From Bacilli bacterium (GTDB taxonomy: Bacteria; Bacillota_I; Bacilli_A; ML615J-28; CAG-698), in assembly GCA_017962745.1 (NCBI GenBank), contig JAGCUR010000018.1:127088-191087 (forward strand): a DNA stretch of 64,000 bases, read 5' to 3'. Numbering within the stretch: position 1 is the stretch's first letter; each line of letters opens with the position of its first letter. The notes under the pieces were generated by a model that was not told the origin of the DNA, searched no databases, and was given only the letters and a program-made list of their open reading frames with translations. Below are positions 12,112-53,801 of the stretch, in pieces. A program made the position numbers and the translations under genes.

Positions 12112-12216
12112 TATAAGCAAAAAATATAAATCAATAAGAAATTAATTGTGTAAAGGTTAATTATATATATGATTGATCTTTATATGATTAATTTTTTTTA
12201 TGGGAAGGAGATAGTA

Positions 12217-13092
12217 ATGAAAGAAAATAATTATGAAGTTGTAAAGTTTAAAGATGAAGAAATTGAATTAGATGTTAATGTGAGCGCAAAAGAAGATACA
12301 GTGTGGTTAACAGTTGAGCAAATAGCTCAATTATTCGAAAGGGATAGAAGTGTAATCTCTAGACATATAAATAACATTTATACAGAAGGAGAACTTGATA
12401 AAAGGACTTCTGTGCATTTTTTGCACATAACTAATTTGAATCCTAAGAATAGGCCGCCTGAATTATATAATCTGGATGTTATTATATCAGTTGGATATAG
12501 AGTAAAATCAAAACGAGGTATTCTATTTAGAAAATGGGCAACAAATGTCTTAAAAGAATACTTATTAAAAGGCTATTCTATCAATGAAAATAGAGTAGTA
12601 GTATCTAATGAAAACTATATCGAGTTAAGAAATGAAGTAGTAAGTATAAATGATAGATTGTTAAAGATAGAAGATAAAGTGTTTGATAAAGAATATGGAT
12701 TAGATAAACTATTTTTTAATGGACAATTTTATGATGCATATACATTAATTCAAAATATCTTTGAAAAAGCTAAAGAAGAAATAATAATTATAGATAATTA
12801 TATAGATAGATCTATTTTAGATAGATTAGTAGTTAAAAAAAATGATGTTAGAGTAATTATATATAAAAATATAAATACATCTAAAATAAATGATATAGAT
12901 ATAAATACATTTAATAAACAATATAATAATTTAAAAATTATTAATACATTAAAAGTACATGATAGATATATAATTATAGACAAAATAAAATTATATCATT
13001 TAGGAGCATCAATTAAAGATTTGGGGAAGAAGATATTTTCAATAAGTGAATTAGATAAAAACTGGATAAATATGTTATTAAATAACCTATAA
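12217..13092 (+). CDS. RhuM-family (virulence RhuM/KilA-N-like) protein with an AT-rich C-terminal domain shared with the ORF6N protein at 51192
   Basis: Carries the LYNLDVIISVGYRVKS..ILFRKWATNVLKEYLLKGYSINENR RhuM core. The C-terminal 130 aa, IIIIDNYID...HDRYIIIDKIKLYHLGASIKDLG, are homologous to the tail of the 51192 gene. Start moved to the ATG with an AAGGAG RBS. Confidence 0.65.
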   Translation: MKENNYEVVKFKDEEIELDVNVSAKEDTVWLTVEQIAQLFERDRSVISRHINNIYTEGELDKRTSVHFLHITNLNPKNRPPELYNLDVIISVGYRVKSKRGILFRKWATNVLKEYLLKGYSINENRVVVSNENYIELRNEVVSINDRLLKIEDKVFDKEYGLDKLFFNGQFYDAYTLIQNIFEKAKEEIIIIDNYIDRSILDRLVVKKNDVRVIIYKNINTSKINDIDINTFNKQYNNLKIINTLKVHDRYIIIDKIKLYHLGASIKDLGKKIFSISELDKNWINMLLNNL

Positions 13093-48067: not shown

Positions 48068-49438
48068 ATGTATAAAAAAGTAAAAGATTATATCGAAACA
48101 ATAGATGGCATATCTCATACTACCTTTGATCCGCACGGACCAGGAGTAGTAAGGATTCACCTAGTACCACCCGAAAAGATTAAACTCGGTTTAGCTTGGA
48201 CCATTATTTTAAATGGTCAAGATGTAATACCTATTACCTTTGGTTGGGCAGTATTACTGCGTGAATTTATTAATGCTGTTAACAAAAGAAGTGGCGTAGC
48301 TTTAGAAGATGAAGAAATTGCCCATATCATTAATGAAGCAATTGAAGCTGCTAGTAAAGTATTTGATAAGACTAACAAAAAGACCCTTCGTGCCGATTTA
48401 AAACAAATCGTAGAAACATTAACTAAGATTGCAAGAAAAGAAAAGATATCTGAGATAATAGAATATGCACCTTTATCTACATATGCTAAATACATGGCTG
48501 CTCCGCACAGAATGGATTTAATGATTTCCGCCATGAGCAAAAATGGGGCTTGGCATTGTAATCAAAAATGTTTAAATTGTTATGCGGCAGGGCAGATTCA
48601 AGCAAATGTAGAAGAAATTGATACTGAAAGTTGGAAGAAAATTATTGATAAATGCAAAGCTTCCATGATTCCTCAATTAACATTTACTGGTGGAGAGCCT
48701 ACACTAAGATCAGATTTAGTAGAACTTGTTAATTATTCACAGTGGTTTGTAACCCGCCTTAATACTAATGGGCAGCTATTATCTAAAGAGTTATGTGCTA
48801 AGTTATATGAAGCAAGCCTTGATAGTGTTCAAGTAACACTATATTCACATAAAAAAGAAATTCATAACTTTCTAGTTGGCGCCGATGGTTTTGATAAAAC
48901 CATTGAGGGCATTAAAAATGCGATTGATGCTAGGTTAAATGTTAGCATCAATACACCATTATGTGATCTAAATAAAGATTATGTGGATATGGTTAAATAT
49001 GCTCATGAAGTGCTAGGTGTTAATTATTTCACATGTTCTGGTTTAATTTTAACTGGTAATGCTACGGATACTGCTAATTCTAGATTATCTAAAGCAGAAA
49101 TCTTAAATGTTTTAAAAGAAGCTAAAGCGTATACTGATTCAAATAATTGCGAATTATCATTTACATCGCCTGGTTGGATTGATAGCGATATTTTAAGAAA
49201 GATGAAAATGATGGTGCCTTCTTGTGGAGCATGTTCATCAAATATGGCTATTACGCCAAATGGCATGGTAGTACCTTGCCAAAGTTGGCTTTCAGATACC
49301 CCACTTGGTAACATGCTAACTGATGAATGGAAAAAGATTTGGAATAGTAGAAGATGTGTAAAGTTAAGAAAAGAAAATTCTAAAGCTAATGATTTATGTC
49401 CATTAAGCGGTAGAATTGAGGGTGAAGTAAATGAGTAA
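48068..49438 (+). CDS. Radical SAM enzyme with C-terminal SPASM/twitch domain and a 160-aa N-terminal extension
   Basis: CNQKCLNCY (CX3CX2C) at aa about 164 and a GGEPTL SAM motif. The C-terminal Cys-rich region (CSGLIL...SCGACSS...VPCQSW...CVKL...CPLSG) is typical of SPASM auxiliary clusters. Confidence 0.75.
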   Translation: MYKKVKDYIETIDGISHTTFDPHGPGVVRIHLVPPEKIKLGLAWTIILNGQDVIPITFGWAVLLREFINAVNKRSGVALEDEEIAHIINEAIEAASKVFDKTNKKTLRADLKQIVETLTKIARKEKISEIIEYAPLSTYAKYMAAPHRMDLMISAMSKNGAWHCNQKCLNCYAAGQIQANVEEIDTESWKKIIDKCKASMIPQLTFTGGEPTLRSDLVELVNYSQWFVTRLNTNGQLLSKELCAKLYEASLDSVQVTLYSHKKEIHNFLVGADGFDKTIEGIKNAIDARLNVSINTPLCDLNKDYVDMVKYAHEVLGVNYFTCSGLILTGNATDTANSRLSKAEILNVLKEAKAYTDSNNCELSFTSPGWIDSDILRKMKMMVPSCGACSSNMAITPNGMVVPCQSWLSDTPLGNMLTDEWKKIWNSRRCVKLRKENSKANDLCPLSGRIEGEVNE

Positions 49439-50471
49439 TATTAAGAAGTTATTGGTATTTATCATTCTTTCCTTAAGCTTAGTTTTTGCTTTCTCATTTA
49501 GTAAAGTTAAAGCATATAATGATTTAGATCATATTGAATTATATGAGATTAAAGTAACACCCGTTAAAGATGATGGTAGCCTAAATATTGAAATCCATAT
49601 TATTTGGGAAGTATTAGATAGTTATACTGATGGTCCATTAGAATGGATTAAAGTAGGTATACCTAATTACCATGCGAAGGACATTAAAGCATTAAGTGGT
49701 GGAATTAGAAAGATAAAGTATTATTCAGATAGTGGATCATACATTAGAATTGATTTTTCTAATAGCCATTATGAAGGTGAAAAGATTGATATTCGCTTTA
49801 GTTATAATCAATCATACATGTATCATCTAAATGAAGAATATGTGGTTTATGATTATCATCCTGGTTGGTTTGATGATATCAAAGTAGATATGTGTAATCT
49901 TTATTGGGCTAAAGATGGTGTAGATCAAATAGCAGATGGCATAACTACTGCAAGTGGTGTAACATTTAGCGAAGAAGATGGTTATTATAAACTATCTAGT
50001 CCACTAAATTATGGTGGAACGATAAAAATGAGGCTTCGCTATGCTAATAATTACTTTAGTGAACTTGATCCAAAGAAAGAATATACTGATAAATATGTTA
50101 AACCAGTAACTATTATTTTAATTGTAGCAGCAATTGTTACCTTTTTAGCAATAGTAATTGCTCTATATTACTATCAAAAGAATAATCAAGATCCATATAT
50201 GAATGAAAGAGGATTTTGTACAGGTTATTACCATTGGTATTTATTTGGTAGACCTCACCATTATTATGGAAAAACAGTTAATAGTAAAGGTGCAAGAATC
50301 GTAAATCCATCTTCTAGCAGTGGAAGCCATGGTGGATTTAGCGGTGGTGGCGGCTGTGCTTGTGCATGTGCTTGCGCATGCGCTGGTGGCGGAAGAGCTG
50401 GATGCTCGAAAAAAGACTTTTACAATACTAACTTGTCAAGCGAAAAAGTATTAAAAGAGTTAGAAAAGTAA
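49431..50471 (+). CDS. DUF2207-like membrane protein with cytoplasmic Gly/Cys-Ala repeat tail
   Basis: Signal peptide, extracytoplasmic beta-rich domain and one TM helix. Cytoplasmic tail ...SSSSGSHGGFSGGGGCACACACACAGGGRAGCS. Overlaps the rSAM gene by 8 bp. Confidence 0.5.
   Translation: MSNIKKLLVFIILSLSLVFAFSFSKVKAYNDLDHIELYEIKVTPVKDDGSLNIEIHIIWEVLDSYTDGPLEWIKVGIPNYHAKDIKALSGGIRKIKYYSDSGSYIRIDFSNSHYEGEKIDIRFSYNQSYMYHLNEEYVVYDYHPGWFDDIKVDMCNLYWAKDGVDQIADGITTASGVTFSEEDGYYKLSSPLNYGGTIKMRLRYANNYFSELDPKKEYTDKYVKPVTIILIVAAIVTFLAIVIALYYYQKNNQDPYMNERGFCTGYYHWYLFGRPHHYYGKTVNSKGARIVNPSSSSGSHGGFSGGGGCACACACACAGGGRAGCSKKDFYNTNLSSEKVLKELEK
50355..50384 (+). repeat. Hexanucleotide (TGY-GCW)x5 in-frame microsatellite encoding (Cys-Ala)5
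   Basis: The sequence tgtgcttgtgcatgtgcttgcgcatgcgct lies within the 49431 ORF. Confidence 0.8.
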
Positions 50472-50488
50472 AGAATTATTCTTAAATG

Positions 50489-50513
50489 AGGAGCCCTAGG
50501 CTCCTTTTTTTTT
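50489..50513 (+). terminator. Rho-independent terminator
   Basis: aggagcc-ctag-ggctcct hairpin followed by T9. Confidence 0.7.
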
Positions 50514-50682
50514 GAAAACGAAAGAAAATGTTTTCTTATTATTGTTTATATCTTTTTAACTAAACATATATTTAGTAGTTCTTATATCCATTATTTATTA
50601 ATTAATAGTTTATAAACACTAAACATATATTTTCATAACCTCTATTTTTACTATGTTATAATTATTAAATATTATTAATATA

Positions 50683-50857
50683 TTTCCAGAAAGATATAGA
50701 TTTCAAATGAATGTGGATGAAATAGAATATTTATCGAGGTCAAAAAATTTGACCTCGATAATGCAAACAACTGGTATAAAGGGTGGCCGTGTTTATTTGC
50801 CATATGCTTTTACTGAACAAGGTATTTATATGTTGAAGAGAGGGGAAGAGAATAATG
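50683..50857 (+). pseudogene. 5'-truncated ORF6N-domain gene copy (first unit of tandem array)
   Basis: Translates as FPERYRFQ...GGRVYLPYAFTEQGIYMLKRGEENNG*, matching the C-terminal half of the next two ORF6N genes. No upstream start. Confidence 0.55.
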
Positions 50858-51199
50858 GATAATAAAGATATAGAAATCATAGAATTAAACAATGAATCAA
50901 TTGAGAAAATGATTTATGTTATTAGGGGCAAGAAAGTAATGCTAGATTTTGATTTAGCTAGAATATATGGTTTTGACACTAAAAGATTAAATGAGCAAGT
51001 AAAAAGAAATATAAGTAAGTTTCCAGAAAGATATAGGTTTCAGCTGACATTATACGAAGTGGATTATTTGGTGAGGTCGCAAAATGCGACCTCACGAATT
51101 TGGCCAATGACTAATGAAGGTGGCAGAAGATATTTGCCATATGCATTTACAGAACAAGGTATTTATATGTTGAAGAGAGGAGAAGAGAATAATGGATAA
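50855..51199 (+). CDS. ORF6N-domain protein (short copy, ORF6N domain only)
   Basis: VMLDFDLARIYG...NEQVKRN..FPERYRF...RYLPYAFTEQG is typical of the ORF6N/KilA-N-like family. About 97% DNA identity with the start of the next gene over about 170 bp. Confidence 0.6.
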   Translation: MDNKDIEIIELNNESIEKMIYVIRGKKVMLDFDLARIYGFDTKRLNEQVKRNISKFPERYRFQLTLYEVDYLVRSQNATSRIWPMTNEGGRRYLPYAFTEQGIYMLKRGEENNG

Positions 51200-52130
51200 T
51201 AAAGAAATAGAAATCATAGAATTAAACAATGAATCAATTGAGAAAATGATTTATGTTATTAGAGACAAGAAAGTAATGCTAGATTTTGATTTAGCTAGAA
51301 TATATGGATATGAAACAAGAAGATTTAATGAACAAGTAAAAAGAAATATTGATAAATTTCCAGAACGATATCGATTTAAGTTGAACCAATTCGAGATTGA
51401 TTCAATCTTGAAGTCGCATTTTGCGACATCAAGTTGGGGCGGCACTAGAAAGCTTCCTTATGCATTCACAGAACAAGGTATTTATATGTTAATGACTGTA
51501 TTAAAAGGAGATTTAGCCACTAAACAATCTATTGCATTAATTGATGCTTTTAAAAATATGAAAGATTATATTATTGAAAACAATGGATTACTATTAAATA
51601 CTAATACTTATATAGAATCAAAGTTTGCTTCATATGATAAAAGATTTGAAGTAATTGAAAATAAAATAGATATAGTTATGGATAACTTTATAGATCCATC
51701 TAGTTATAAACATTATTTAATACTAAATGGTCAAAGGATTGAATCAGATATTGCTTGTCAATCTATTTATAAATTAGCTAAATATTCTTTAATAATAATT
51801 GATAATTATATAGATATAAAAACATTACAGTTATTAAAAGTATGTAATAAAGATATAAATATAATAATTATAAGTGATAATGTATTAAGACTAGGTAATA
51901 GTTTTATTAATGATTTTAAAAAAGATACTAATATTAATATAATAATAAAACCAAATAATAATTTATTTCATGATAGATATATTATTATAGACTATGATAA
52001 TAATGATAATTATCAAATATATCATTGTGGATCATCTAGTAAAGATGGAGGGAATAAGATATCTACTATTATGAAAATAGAAGATAAGATGATGTATAAA
52101 AAGATCATTGATAAAATGATAATTATATAA
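51192..52130 (+). CDS. ORF6N-domain protein with C-terminal domain shared with the RhuM protein at 12217 (HxR-x4-D PLD-like motif)
   Basis: N-terminal ORF6N domain. The C-terminal 140 aa, LIIIDNYID...HDRYIIIDYDNNDNYQIYHCGSSSKDGG, are homologous to the RhuM gene tail. Extremely AT-rich 3' half. Confidence 0.65.
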   Translation: MDNKEIEIIELNNESIEKMIYVIRDKKVMLDFDLARIYGYETRRFNEQVKRNIDKFPERYRFKLNQFEIDSILKSHFATSSWGGTRKLPYAFTEQGIYMLMTVLKGDLATKQSIALIDAFKNMKDYIIENNGLLLNTNTYIESKFASYDKRFEVIENKIDIVMDNFIDPSSYKHYLILNGQRIESDIACQSIYKLAKYSLIIIDNYIDIKTLQLLKVCNKDINIIIISDNVLRLGNSFINDFKKDTNINIIIKPNNNLFHDRYIIIDYDNNDNYQIYHCGSSSKDGGNKISTIMKIEDKMMYKKIIDKMIII

Positions 52131-52223
52131 TAGGCGAAGAATAATTTATAATGTCATATTAATTGCTATCTTTTGTATTTTATTATATACTCTAATAGGA
52201 ATAAATATAAAGGAGGCCTTATT

Positions 52224-53801
52224 ATGGCAAAGAAACCAATTTTATTAGTTGTTATGGATGGTGTTGGCTTTTCCAAAACTGGCTTAGGCGATGCAGTTAG
52301 TTTAGCTAATACTCCTACACTTGATTATTTGCTTGCAAATTATCCAAATGTTAGATTAAAAGCACATGGTAGTGCTGTTGGTCTACCTAGTGATGATGAT
52401 ATGGGAAATAGTGAAGTTGGACATAATGCTATTGGATGTGGACAAATATATTCACAAGGTGCAAAACTAGTAAATGAATCAATCGAAAGTGGTAAGATGT
52501 TTAAATCTAACGCTTGGGCTGAAGTTGTAAATAACGTTAAAGAACATGATTCTACATTACACTTTATCGGTTTACTATCTGATGGTAATGTTCATTCAAA
52601 CATTTCTCATTTAATTGCGATGCTCAAAGCAGCTAAAAATGATGGTGTTAAAGAAGTAAGAATTCATATTTTACTTGATGGTAGAGATGTTCCGGCTACA
52701 TCTGCTCTAATTTATGTAGATCAATTAGAAAATGCTTTAAAAGAATTAAATGATTCTTCATTTAATGGCTTAATTGCATCAGGTGGCGGTAGAATGAAGA
52801 TCACTATGGACCGTTATCAAGCAAATTGGAAGATGGTTGAAGAAGGCTGGAAAACTCATGTACAAGGCGAGGGTAGATTCTTTCCTTCTGCTACATCAGC
52901 TATAACTACATACCGTGAAGAAAATCCTGGTGTTATTGACCAAGATTTACCAGCATTTGTCATTGGCAAAGAAAATGCCCCAGTTGGTAAGATGCATGAT
53001 AATGATTCAGTAATCTTATTTAACTTTAGAGGTGACCGTGCAATTGAGTTATCAATGGCATTTGATCAAGATGGCTTTAATAAATTTAATAAAGCATATA
53101 ATCCTAAAGTTGTTTATGCTGGATTACTTCAATACGATGGTGATTTACAATTACCTAAACGTTTCTTAGTAGCTCCACCAGAAATCCATAATACTCTAAC
53201 CGAAGTAATGGTTGAAAATGGTGTTAATGAATTCGCTATTAGCGAAACGCAAAAATATGGTCATGTAACATATTTCTGGAATGGTAATAGAACCGAAAAG
53301 TTTAGCCAAGAACTTGAAACTTATGTAGAGATACCATCAGATAAAGTATCATTTGATGAAAGACCTTGGATGAAATCAGCAGAAATCACTGATAGATTAA
53401 TTGAAGAATTAAAGAGTCATAAATATGGTTTCTTAAGAGTTAATTTCCCTAATGGTGATATGGTTGGTCATACTGGTAGCTTACCAGCTACTATTTGCTC
53501 AATGGAAGCACTAGATTTAGCTTTAGCAAGATTACTTGCGGTTGCTAAAAAAGAAGGTTATACGATGTTAGTTACAGCCGATCATGGTAATGCGGATGAA
53601 ATGTTAGAAAAGAACAAAAAAGGTGAAATCACAGTTAGAACTGCACATTCACTAAACCCTGTTCCATTTATTATTGTGGATGATGATAATAAATATGAAT
53701 TTGTAGAAGGTAATTACGGCCTAGCTAACATCGCTCCAACTGTTGTTAAGATGATGGGATTTAAGATTCCAGCTTCTTGGGAAAAACCAATGATTAAATA
53801 A
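52224..53801 (+). CDS. gpmI: 2,3-bisphosphoglycerate-independent phosphoglycerate mutase
   Basis: KKPILLVVMDGVG start and metal-binding motifs (DGRD, ADHGN). Start moved to the ATG after the AAAGGAGG RBS. Confidence 0.9.
   Translation: MAKKPILLVVMDGVGFSKTGLGDAVSLANTPTLDYLLANYPNVRLKAHGSAVGLPSDDDMGNSEVGHNAIGCGQIYSQGAKLVNESIESGKMFKSNAWAEVVNNVKEHDSTLHFIGLLSDGNVHSNISHLIAMLKAAKNDGVKEVRIHILLDGRDVPATSALIYVDQLENALKELNDSSFNGLIASGGGRMKITMDRYQANWKMVEEGWKTHVQGEGRFFPSATSAITTYREENPGVIDQDLPAFVIGKENAPVGKMHDNDSVILFNFRGDRAIELSMAFDQDGFNKFNKAYNPKVVYAGLLQYDGDLQLPKRFLVAPPEIHNTLTEVMVENGVNEFAISETQKYGHVTYFWNGNRTEKFSQELETYVEIPSDKVSFDERPWMKSAEITDRLIEELKSHKYGFLRVNFPNGDMVGHTGSLPATICSMEALDLALARLLAVAKKEGYTMLVTADHGNADEMLEKNKKGEITVRTAHSLNPVPFIIVDDDNKYEFVEGNYGLANIAPTVVKMMGFKIPASWEKPMIK

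Follow-up and report, generated by a model that had tools for sequence, protein, structure and literature searches.

Orphan ORF6N heads upstream of a PDC-S05-family gene in a Bacilli bacterium, and their possible exchange by recombination in conserved flanks

A 64,000-nucleotide stretch from the metagenome-assembled genome (MAG) of a Bacilli bacterium (assembly GCA_017962745.1, contig JAGCUR010000018.1, positions 127,088–191,087), referred to here as the window, contains three ORF6N units arranged head to tail on the plus strand (50683–52130) with a period of 337 bp. The third is a full-length gene whose 312-aa product consists of an ORF6N head (aa 1–100), a helical linker (about aa 107–166) and a PLD-fold domain (about aa 170–312; hereafter the tail), and is a full-length match to PDC-S05, a candidate single-gene phage-defence family. 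We consider it probable, at roughly 0.6, that the locus comprises one working PDC-S05-family gene with two displaced orphan heads upstream, reshaped by homologous recombination in the conserved flanks of the heads. Each head core also contains a palindrome (see below).

The first-pass annotation of the window, made from the sequence alone, described three head-to-tail units with a period of about 330–337 bp, the first holding only the 3' half of a head, the second complete for the ORF6N domain and ending in KRGEENNG with its stop codon overlapping the next ATG, and the third continuing into a C-terminal module. This description was borne out in all its parts. A repeat search gave a spacing of 337 nt for a 300-nt direct repeat (50782–51081 and 51119–51418, 86% identity) and three-copy repeat families in register, with spacings of 337/337 and 337/319; Tandem Repeats Finder, run on the window, missed the array because the unit cores are too diverged. 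In a profile search, all three units scored above the gathering score of Pfam ORF6N (PF10543; 27.8 bits). Unit 1 (50683–50862, plus strand; 38 bits) is a 5'-truncated head followed by the junction, with its match confined to profile positions 39–83, i.e. the 3' half; it begins abruptly at the FPERYRF codons, has no ribosome-binding site (RBS) of its own and is probably part of the 5' leader. Unit 2 (50855–51199, plus strand; 108.2 bits) is an intact open reading frame (ORF) of 114 aa with a good RBS, a whole ORF6N domain and no C-terminal module, the 3' end being ...GIYMLKRGEENNG plus the stop codon (peptide ...KRGEENNG). Unit 3 (51192–52130, plus strand; 106.9 bits over residues 19–103) is the 312-aa gene, whose head runs on via ...GIYMLMTVLKGD... 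into about 200 further residues. The stop of unit 2 and the start of unit 3 overlap in AATAATGGATAA.

The units are connected by a junction repeat, present on the plus strand at 50795–50965 (copy 1) and 51132–51302 (copy 2), with 165 of 171 bases the same (96.5%) and a longest exact run of 56 nt. The identity of about 97% given by the first-pass annotation was thus confirmed, and its second interval needed correction by one base. As had also been noted, the portions between the junctions are diverged, identity falling to 16–19/30 in 30-nt windows, and the unit cores are 60–70% alike overall, with a drop to about 55–65% between the junctions. Each junction consists of three parts: 1) the conserved 3' end of a head (LPYAFTEQGIYML), 2) the gene's own leader of about 22 nt with its RBS (GAGGGGAAGAG), and 3) the conserved first 110 nt or so of the next head. 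The reading frame of the upstream head passes through the leader and stops at a TAA overlapping codons 2 and 3 of the next gene; the stop/start overlap of units 2 and 3 is therefore a consequence of how the junction is built. Units 1 and 2 are partial copies that share this 171-bp junction with the expressed gene.

Such an arrangement presumably arose by the following pathway. The end of a head (...GIYML) would once have been joined illegitimately to the gene's own leader and RBS, by which each variable head core (about aa 40–90) would have become flanked by the same conserved segment of about 170 bp. Ordinary homologous recombination in these flanks could then move cores between orphan and tail-fused positions and also alter the number of units, the possible routes being unequal crossing-over, short gene-conversion tracts, and exchange with other strains and with paralogous loci. 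The likely result would be a changed target of the PLD-fold domain; the orphans would be a by-product that could also act as a local reservoir of alternative heads.

This pathway can be compared with what is found at the same chromosomal site in related strains (compared loci are numbered L, and proteins P), where the order of genes is conserved: flavodoxin-like, radical-SAM/SPASM, 346-aa membrane protein, ORF6N locus, gpmI, nitroreductase, acyltransferase and DegV. Four arrangements occupy the site: 1) The window's three-unit array is present in L001, a contig from a different sample that is 95.4% identical over 9.8 kb and carries its own single-nucleotide polymorphisms (SNPs). 2) L004, L005 and L006 have a single gene of 316 aa with its own short leader and no orphan, and its head is the window's unit 2. 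3) L002 and L003 have an orphan of a fourth type, then the junction, then a full gene with a unit-1-like head; the contigs of these two assemblies start at the same base, inside the orphan. 4) L128 combines a leader and N-terminus of the L004 type with the unit-3 core as a 105-aa orphan, again ending in KRGEENNG, followed by an L002-type full gene. This one site thus offers three types of head on the same tail. Two of the three are present in the window as orphans, and the head that is active there is itself orphaned elsewhere.

The head cores are more alike between strains than the flanking genes are. The core of unit 2 is the tail-fused head of P0004 in L004, without any amino-acid difference; the two heads show 14 mismatches over 298 nt, the first 50 nt accounting for 12 of these and the last 220 nt for only 1, whereas the adjacent radical-SAM gene of the two strains is 5.5% diverged. 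The unit-3 core of L128 is 96.4% identical to that of the window, against 87.9% for the flanking radical-SAM gene, and unit 1, from its palindrome on (50732–50834), is 87% identical to the tail-fused head of L002 (367–469). Between the window and L001 the array region (50446–51445) differs at 8 of 1000 bases (99.2% identity), compared with about 5% in the flanks. Five of these eight differences lie within 64 nt of the 5' end of unit 2 (50878–50941), and at all five the window's unit 2 agrees with unit 3; the patch suggests a short gene-conversion tract, the direction of which cannot be fixed without an outgroup. Together with the occurrence of the same cores as orphans in some strains and fused in others, this patch is an indirect hint that heads may be transferred non-reciprocally from donor to expression site.

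The first-pass annotation had supposed that recombination in the junctions could change the head fused to the C-terminal module and that the array could grow or shrink, and had held that an array invariant among related genomes would count against this. The comparison of related strains accords with both suppositions: different heads occur on the same tail at the same locus, relatives carry 0, 1 or 2 orphans, and the array is not invariant. At the level of strain-to-strain variation, and not of switching within a clone, that interpretation is supported by the sequences compared.

Family-wide, the least conserved 10-residue block is aa 71–80 (mean pairwise identity 0.38) and the most conserved segment, its neighbour, is aa 91–110 (0.96 and 0.91 for its two blocks). 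Strong pairwise breakpoints cluster at aa 81–100 and 151–160, so that the head core and a linker segment behave as exchangeable modules. In the family alignment, the linker at aa 128–160 falls into at least three discrete types (LLLNTNTYIESKF..., SSINDVIKLTNQV... and LTTNETIKLTNLV...), shuffled independently of head type. Natural variation marks the ORF6N head core, of about 50 residues, as the part under diversifying pressure.

Arrays were also found elsewhere. The junction of the window recurs in L001, L002, L128, L129 and L130 and, degraded, in L127; this one junction sequence is found in at least six arrays at a minimum of three chromosomal loci, with the degraded copy at a fourth (L127). 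L130, located after trkH, contains a leader, the same truncated first unit, a 115-aa orphan and a full gene. The leader at 50509–50700 in the window is 81% identical to L130 2330–2520, including the same truncation point of unit 1, and leader and array seem to be moved or copied together; no mobility gene is seen there. L129 has an orphan followed by a unit interrupted by an assembly gap (N gap at about 680–690 of the scaffold, inside the unit), and L127, located after metK, has a shorter truncated head remnant with no RBS, the degraded junction and a full gene. A second junction type was found in L217, where two orphans, each ending in ...MTVLKGD(F/I)D.I. and a stop and followed by a leader of about 40 nt, precede a full gene; this contig starts inside the array. 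The third type, in L218 adjoining an AbiEii gene, has one orphan ending in ...LKGDN and a full gene; here (600–630) the LKGD codons (AAAGGAGAT, AAAGGAG) double as the Shine-Dalgarno sequence of the next gene, which begins with GTG 2 nt past the orphan's stop. The three independent junction types all cut within 12 codons after the end of the head, and different head classes are combined in every array examined. By these sequence comparisons, the architecture originated at least three times. Contigs that end inside arrays are consistent with repeats or with mixed array forms in the sampled populations.

Two further loci resemble these arrays. In L121 (1884–3555), a RhuM-PLD gene (457 aa) is preceded by two partial ORF6N heads, in part fused to it; the first head breaks off 4 nt past its palindrome, where a repeat of the leader is attached. 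In L021 from Fibrobacter (22–2830), three tandem ORF6N-PLD copies carry different heads, the first partial at the contig end and the other two full-length. Frameshifted or longer truncated relatives (P0152, P0157 and P0173) were also seen. In JGI metagenome contigs, the junction DNA pattern gave 0 matches, and a protein scan added only the single-gene type and distant relatives.

The 312-aa protein, to which P0001 is identical, matched the PADLOC PDC-S05 model PDLC04869 with an E value of 6.6e-99 (residues 1–309 on profile positions 2–300 of 306). Its relatives number more than 8000 and are about 320 aa long; the closest with a name is from a 'Bacilli bacterium' MAG, and hosts include rumen, gut and oral Bacilli, Acholeplasmatales, Fibrobacter, Bacteroidales, Treponema, Lachnospiraceae and others. 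Relatives also occur on viral contigs, on Legionella conjugative plasmids and adjoining AbiEii; the window gene stands between housekeeping genes. Annotated phage records gave 4 matches only, all unannotated. The tail contains two motifs, H260-D-R262-x4-D267 and G280-x-S-S-K284-D (S282-S283-K284-D285), both invariant in 21 relatives. A model of the C-terminal domain has the PLD fold, in which Arg takes the place of the classical motif's Lys; the best structural matches of the model are non-catalytic (TrmB and FAM83). No Pfam PLD family matched the protein at E values up to 1, a PDB sequence search with the family profile gave nothing meaningful, and an NCBIfam search gave only a sub-threshold match to the VPA1262 N-domain. 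As modelled, the tail is probably a nuclease or phosphodiesterase acting as a dimer, and it is in this sense that the C-terminal module, called an effector in the first-pass annotation, may be a putative one. A second PDC-S05 paralogue in the window (12169–13092, plus strand) has a RhuM head (PF13310, E 2e-19; PDLC04879, E 2.8e-87) on the same PLD-fold tail, sharing VHDRYIIID...GASIKD. In E. coli B, a PDC-S05 member with a RhuM domain is reported in a preprint to have cut T7 and T5 plating by a factor of about 1000 (bioRxiv 10.1101/2024.09.26.614923). We infer that the 312-aa protein defends against phage and that the heads set specificity.

Several observations weigh against our interpretation. 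The one functional test found in the literature was made with a RhuM-headed member and not with an ORF6N-headed one. No recombinase was found within about 5 kb on either side of the locus in the window's relatives and there are no inverted repeats, units and junctions all being direct repeats. Genome contigs of other species gave no orphan-head array among 80 loci, and the independent arrays came solely from close relatives assembled from rumen or gut metagenomes. Every sequence used for comparison is a metagenome assembly, and several of these break inside arrays. In the L128 orphan an invariant glycine has become Cys and the palindrome is damaged, which is more in keeping with decay than with a reservoir that is being maintained. 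Moreover, the array structure is the same in two strains about 5% apart (the window and L001), so change is not rapid. As there is neither a recombinase nor an inverted repeat, and the same array is present in a strain about 95% identical, the process looks, on sequence grounds, like homologous recombination acting over evolutionary time and not like proven programmed switching.

The orphans might instead be products in their own right. If the locus were an operon, the short ORF6N proteins would be made and would act alone, for instance as regulators, or as competitors or partners restraining the full-length protein, and the array would be maintained for their sake and not as a reservoir for recombination. 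We regard this as rather unlikely, though unit 2 speaks for it: it is intact in both the window and L001, its RBS is strong, its stop overlaps the next start in a way that allows translational coupling, and its core has no amino-acid difference from the functional L004 head. The whole domain, moreover, is always kept by the three junction types, which cut at most 12 codons past the head, and databases hold many ORF6N-only ORFs of 100–130 aa; however, many of the latter are on contigs of <1.5 kb and may have been cut by contig ends. Unit 1 and the L127 remnant, on the other hand, are truncated and have no RBS, the L128 orphan has lost an invariant glycine, and some strains have at this locus one gene without any orphan. 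Competition for the same sites is also not obvious, since the orphan classes differ from the fused head.

At the other extreme, the orphans could be inert debris, i.e. slowly decaying leftovers of allelic replacement at a fast-evolving defence gene that serve neither as reservoir nor as protein. One unit is truncated, the L128 orphan shows decay, frameshifted or longer truncated relatives exist, dedicated recombination machinery is lacking, and arrays are absent from the 80 loci of other species, all of which would fit. Inert debris is nevertheless an unlikely explanation for an array that is more conserved than its flanks (8/1000 versus about 5% between the window and L001) and for a unit 2 without any disabling change. 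Since one and the same core is an orphan in one strain and joined to the tail in another, orphans, or relatives of theirs, have come back into use; the architecture also has at least three origins.

A programmed, high-frequency phase-variation switch within a clone, like the hsdS shufflons or pilE/pilS, we hold to be highly improbable. It could draw on the short conversion-like patch in unit 2, on the conserved palindrome in each core, which could serve as an initiator, and on the array-internal ends of independently assembled contigs (at one shared base in L002 and L003; also in L217) together with the N gap in L129, which would fit population heterogeneity. Co-existing strains and repeats explain the contig breaks equally well, however, and neither an invertase nor an integrase is present, the repeats run in direct and not in inverted orientation, and the array is stable over about 5% of genome divergence. 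An assembly artefact from duplicated or collapsed reads, conceivable in a MAG with junction repeats as long as 171 bp, has a negligible probability, since the longest exact repeat is 56 nt and the cores, 30–40% diverged, make the units distinguishable, related arrays come from further samples, and the independent L001 assembly, from another sample, has the same three units with different SNPs.

Each variable core of the array contains a palindrome, a feature that was missed in the first-pass annotation. Palindrome 1 (50731–50761) is TTATCGAGGTCAAA aaa TTTGACCTCGATAA, with 14 perfect pairs; palindrome 2 (51068–51098) is TTGGTGAGGTCGCA aaa TGCGACCTCACGAA, with 11 perfect pairs, one mismatch and 2 more pairs; and palindrome 3 (51406–51431) is TTGAAGTCGCA ttt TGCGACATCAA, with one A-A mismatch. 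A single difference in L001 (T at 51412) makes the unit 3 palindrome perfect there. The three sequences differ and the symmetry is kept, and the heads of L007–L130 likewise have a near-perfect palindrome at the core centre. The consensus is CTTGAGGTCAAA-AAA-TTTGACCTCAAG, with arms of 10–16 bp around a 3-nt A/T centre and perfect stems of up to 16 bp. With the centre chosen without bias, 104 of 106 distinct family heads, across phyla, have at least 8/12 Watson-Crick pairs; mean pairing is 10.9/12 versus 7.4 after synonymous-codon resampling, and in 98 of the 106 heads the observed pairing was reached in at most 1/60 synonymous resamples. Among 59 aligned palindromes, a set selected for perfect stems, both sides change at 12 of 14 pairs (163 cells), far above all shuffle and slid controls. 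The palindrome coincides with the protein's least conserved residues (aa 71–80), and the amino-acid changes track the nucleotide pairing (R-S-K...L-T-S, R-C-K...C-T-S and M-S-K...T(ACA)-S).

With the same unbiased centre, the non-Watson-Crick cells comprise 12 G-T and 20 A-C and thus show no wobble preference, which argues against an RNA helix and for a constraint at the DNA level or templated repair. An RNA hairpin or terminator was ranked below a DNA-level element for this reason and because no T-run follows the hairpins on the sense strand. Rfam covariance models run on 50300–52300 gave chance-level results only, with no match at E below 0.9.

Similar palindromes occur outside the close relatives. 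Distant ORF6N proteins with other tails carry a palindrome of the same core: in distant ORF6N genes of about 185 aa, the core GGTCGAA-AAT-TTCGACC lies at the homologous place in another reading frame, as in a Segatella copri plasmid (L135 783–803; GTGGTCGAA aat TTCGACCAC, read as VVENFDH) and, in similar form, in a Legionella geestiana plasmid (L136 1059–1075; read as LVENFDR). In many ORF6N genes of the Bacteroides-phage type the palindrome is short (5–6 bp). At eight or more loci, a palindrome of this class occurs by itself in the 5' leader, 10–200 nt before the start codon, with no other head sequence around it (L057 2961–2987, L074 2935–2961, L053 5571–5597, L087 2437–2463, L088 and L089 2423–2449, two copies in L106 at 2271–2297 and 2365–2391, and three copies in L013 at about 430–560). 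In the window, the truncated unit 1 places a palindrome of this kind some 70 nt 3' of a TGnTATAAT-like box. The leader and intragenic palindromes of one locus usually differ in sequence, which weakens a simple model of one protein and one operator. In the 64-kb window there are no further copies of the three palindromes or their half-sites beyond chance one-mismatch matches, and a local operator elsewhere in the window is accordingly unsupported.

Palindromes also lie at or near several breakpoints: the homology between unit 1 and the L002 head starts exactly at the palindrome, and the heads of L111 and L121 are truncated within a few nt past it. Several heads hold two or three copies of the motif. 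Tentatively, and as a possibility that we do not favour, the palindrome may be a DNA-level cis element and not a side effect of the protein sequence, serving as a diversifier or as the gene product's own binding site. In the first case, a cruciform or hairpin could provoke breaks or template switching, driving both the exchange of heads and coordinated mutation of the specificity loop. In the second, the palindrome could be bound by a dimeric ORF6N head whose recognition loop is encoded by the very sequence recognised. The palindrome may equally be a site bound by protein, a hot spot of recombination or mutation, a sequence that perpetuates itself through template switching, or several of these at once. 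If the palindrome acts as a cis element, the orphan arrays would be its visible product.

The array is preceded by an AT-rich leader/promoter region (50515–50682, plus strand), which begins right after the terminator of the upstream gene (50488–50506). The TGnTATAAT-like box lies near 50653–50661; promoter calls are unreliable in such AT-rich DNA, and a promoter scan of the region was uninformative (25 found versus 16 expected). The first-pass annotation had reported two 14-bp direct repeats here. The repeats exist, with a different length and other positions: the repeat search gave 15 nt (ACTAAACATATATTT) at 50559–50573 and 50618–50632 on the plus strand. Each copy overlaps a TATATT -10-like hexamer. 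Since the second copy is not kept in the homologous L130 leader, no function is supported for this repeat. The 346-aa membrane protein encoded upstream (ORF 49431–50471) had no Pfam match and has a Gly/Cys/Ala-rich C-terminal tail (GGGGCACACACACAGGG) encoded by a TGTGCA-type microsatellite (50355–50388).

PDC-S05 is a heterogeneous candidate family without a described mechanism, as are many single-gene defence candidates, and the orphan-head arrays and the palindrome are features added here; no description of either was found in the literature searched. The closest parallels are with systems that keep spare modules. In the orphan cassettes of rhs and cdiA, displaced variable domains stay beside the gene together with a conserved stretch, and recombination can restore them. 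The loci described here are similar in that strains differ in the number and content of orphans and the conserved stretch is retained. In rhs and cdiA, however, the variable part is C-terminal and the orphans lie downstream, each with an immunity gene, whereas here the N-terminal DNA-binding head varies, the orphans are placed upstream of the gene, after its promoter, and a partner gene is absent. In the pilE/pilS system of Neisseria, partial silent copies donate segments, and a G-quadruplex near the expressed gene is needed to start conversion. Here, too, variable segments lie between conserved flanks, and partial donor copies share these flanks with the expressed gene. The palindrome is possibly analogous to the G-quadruplex, but it lies inside every cassette and not beside the expression site.

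The phase-variable hsdS loci of Type I restriction systems (pneumococcal SpnD39III/ivr, and the shufflons of Bacteroides and Mycoplasma) likewise keep spare DNA-recognition modules of a defence enzyme beside an expressed gene, with recombination determining which module is in use, but have inverted repeats, usually a dedicated recombinase, and high-frequency switching (PMC9881135), in contrast to the direct repeats, missing recombinase and between-strain change seen here; the array lacks both the flanking inverted repeats and the adjacent site-specific recombinase of a shufflon. In the literature searched, RhuM appears only as a neighbour of Type I restriction-modification inversions. As to the tail, BfiI, NgoAVII, the nuclease domain of SauUSI, and Nuc/NucT are PLD-family nucleases fused to a DNA-binding domain, with the motif H-x-K-x4-D...G-S-x-N, whereas the present proteins have H-D-R-x4-D with a downstream S-S-K-D, and their DNA-binding domain is an N-terminal ORF6N. 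The different heads found on one PLD-fold tail at one site are ready-made head swaps. The most variable protein segment is under a nucleotide-level constraint conserved from Legionella plasmids to rumen Bacilli, and through the palindrome a connection of DNA structure with targeted diversification, or with self-recognition, would become open to direct test. Within an uncharacterised family of defence candidates, the system varies the orphan-cassette theme: the logic known from Rhs, CdiA and HsdS is extended to an N-terminal DNA-binding domain without a recombinase.

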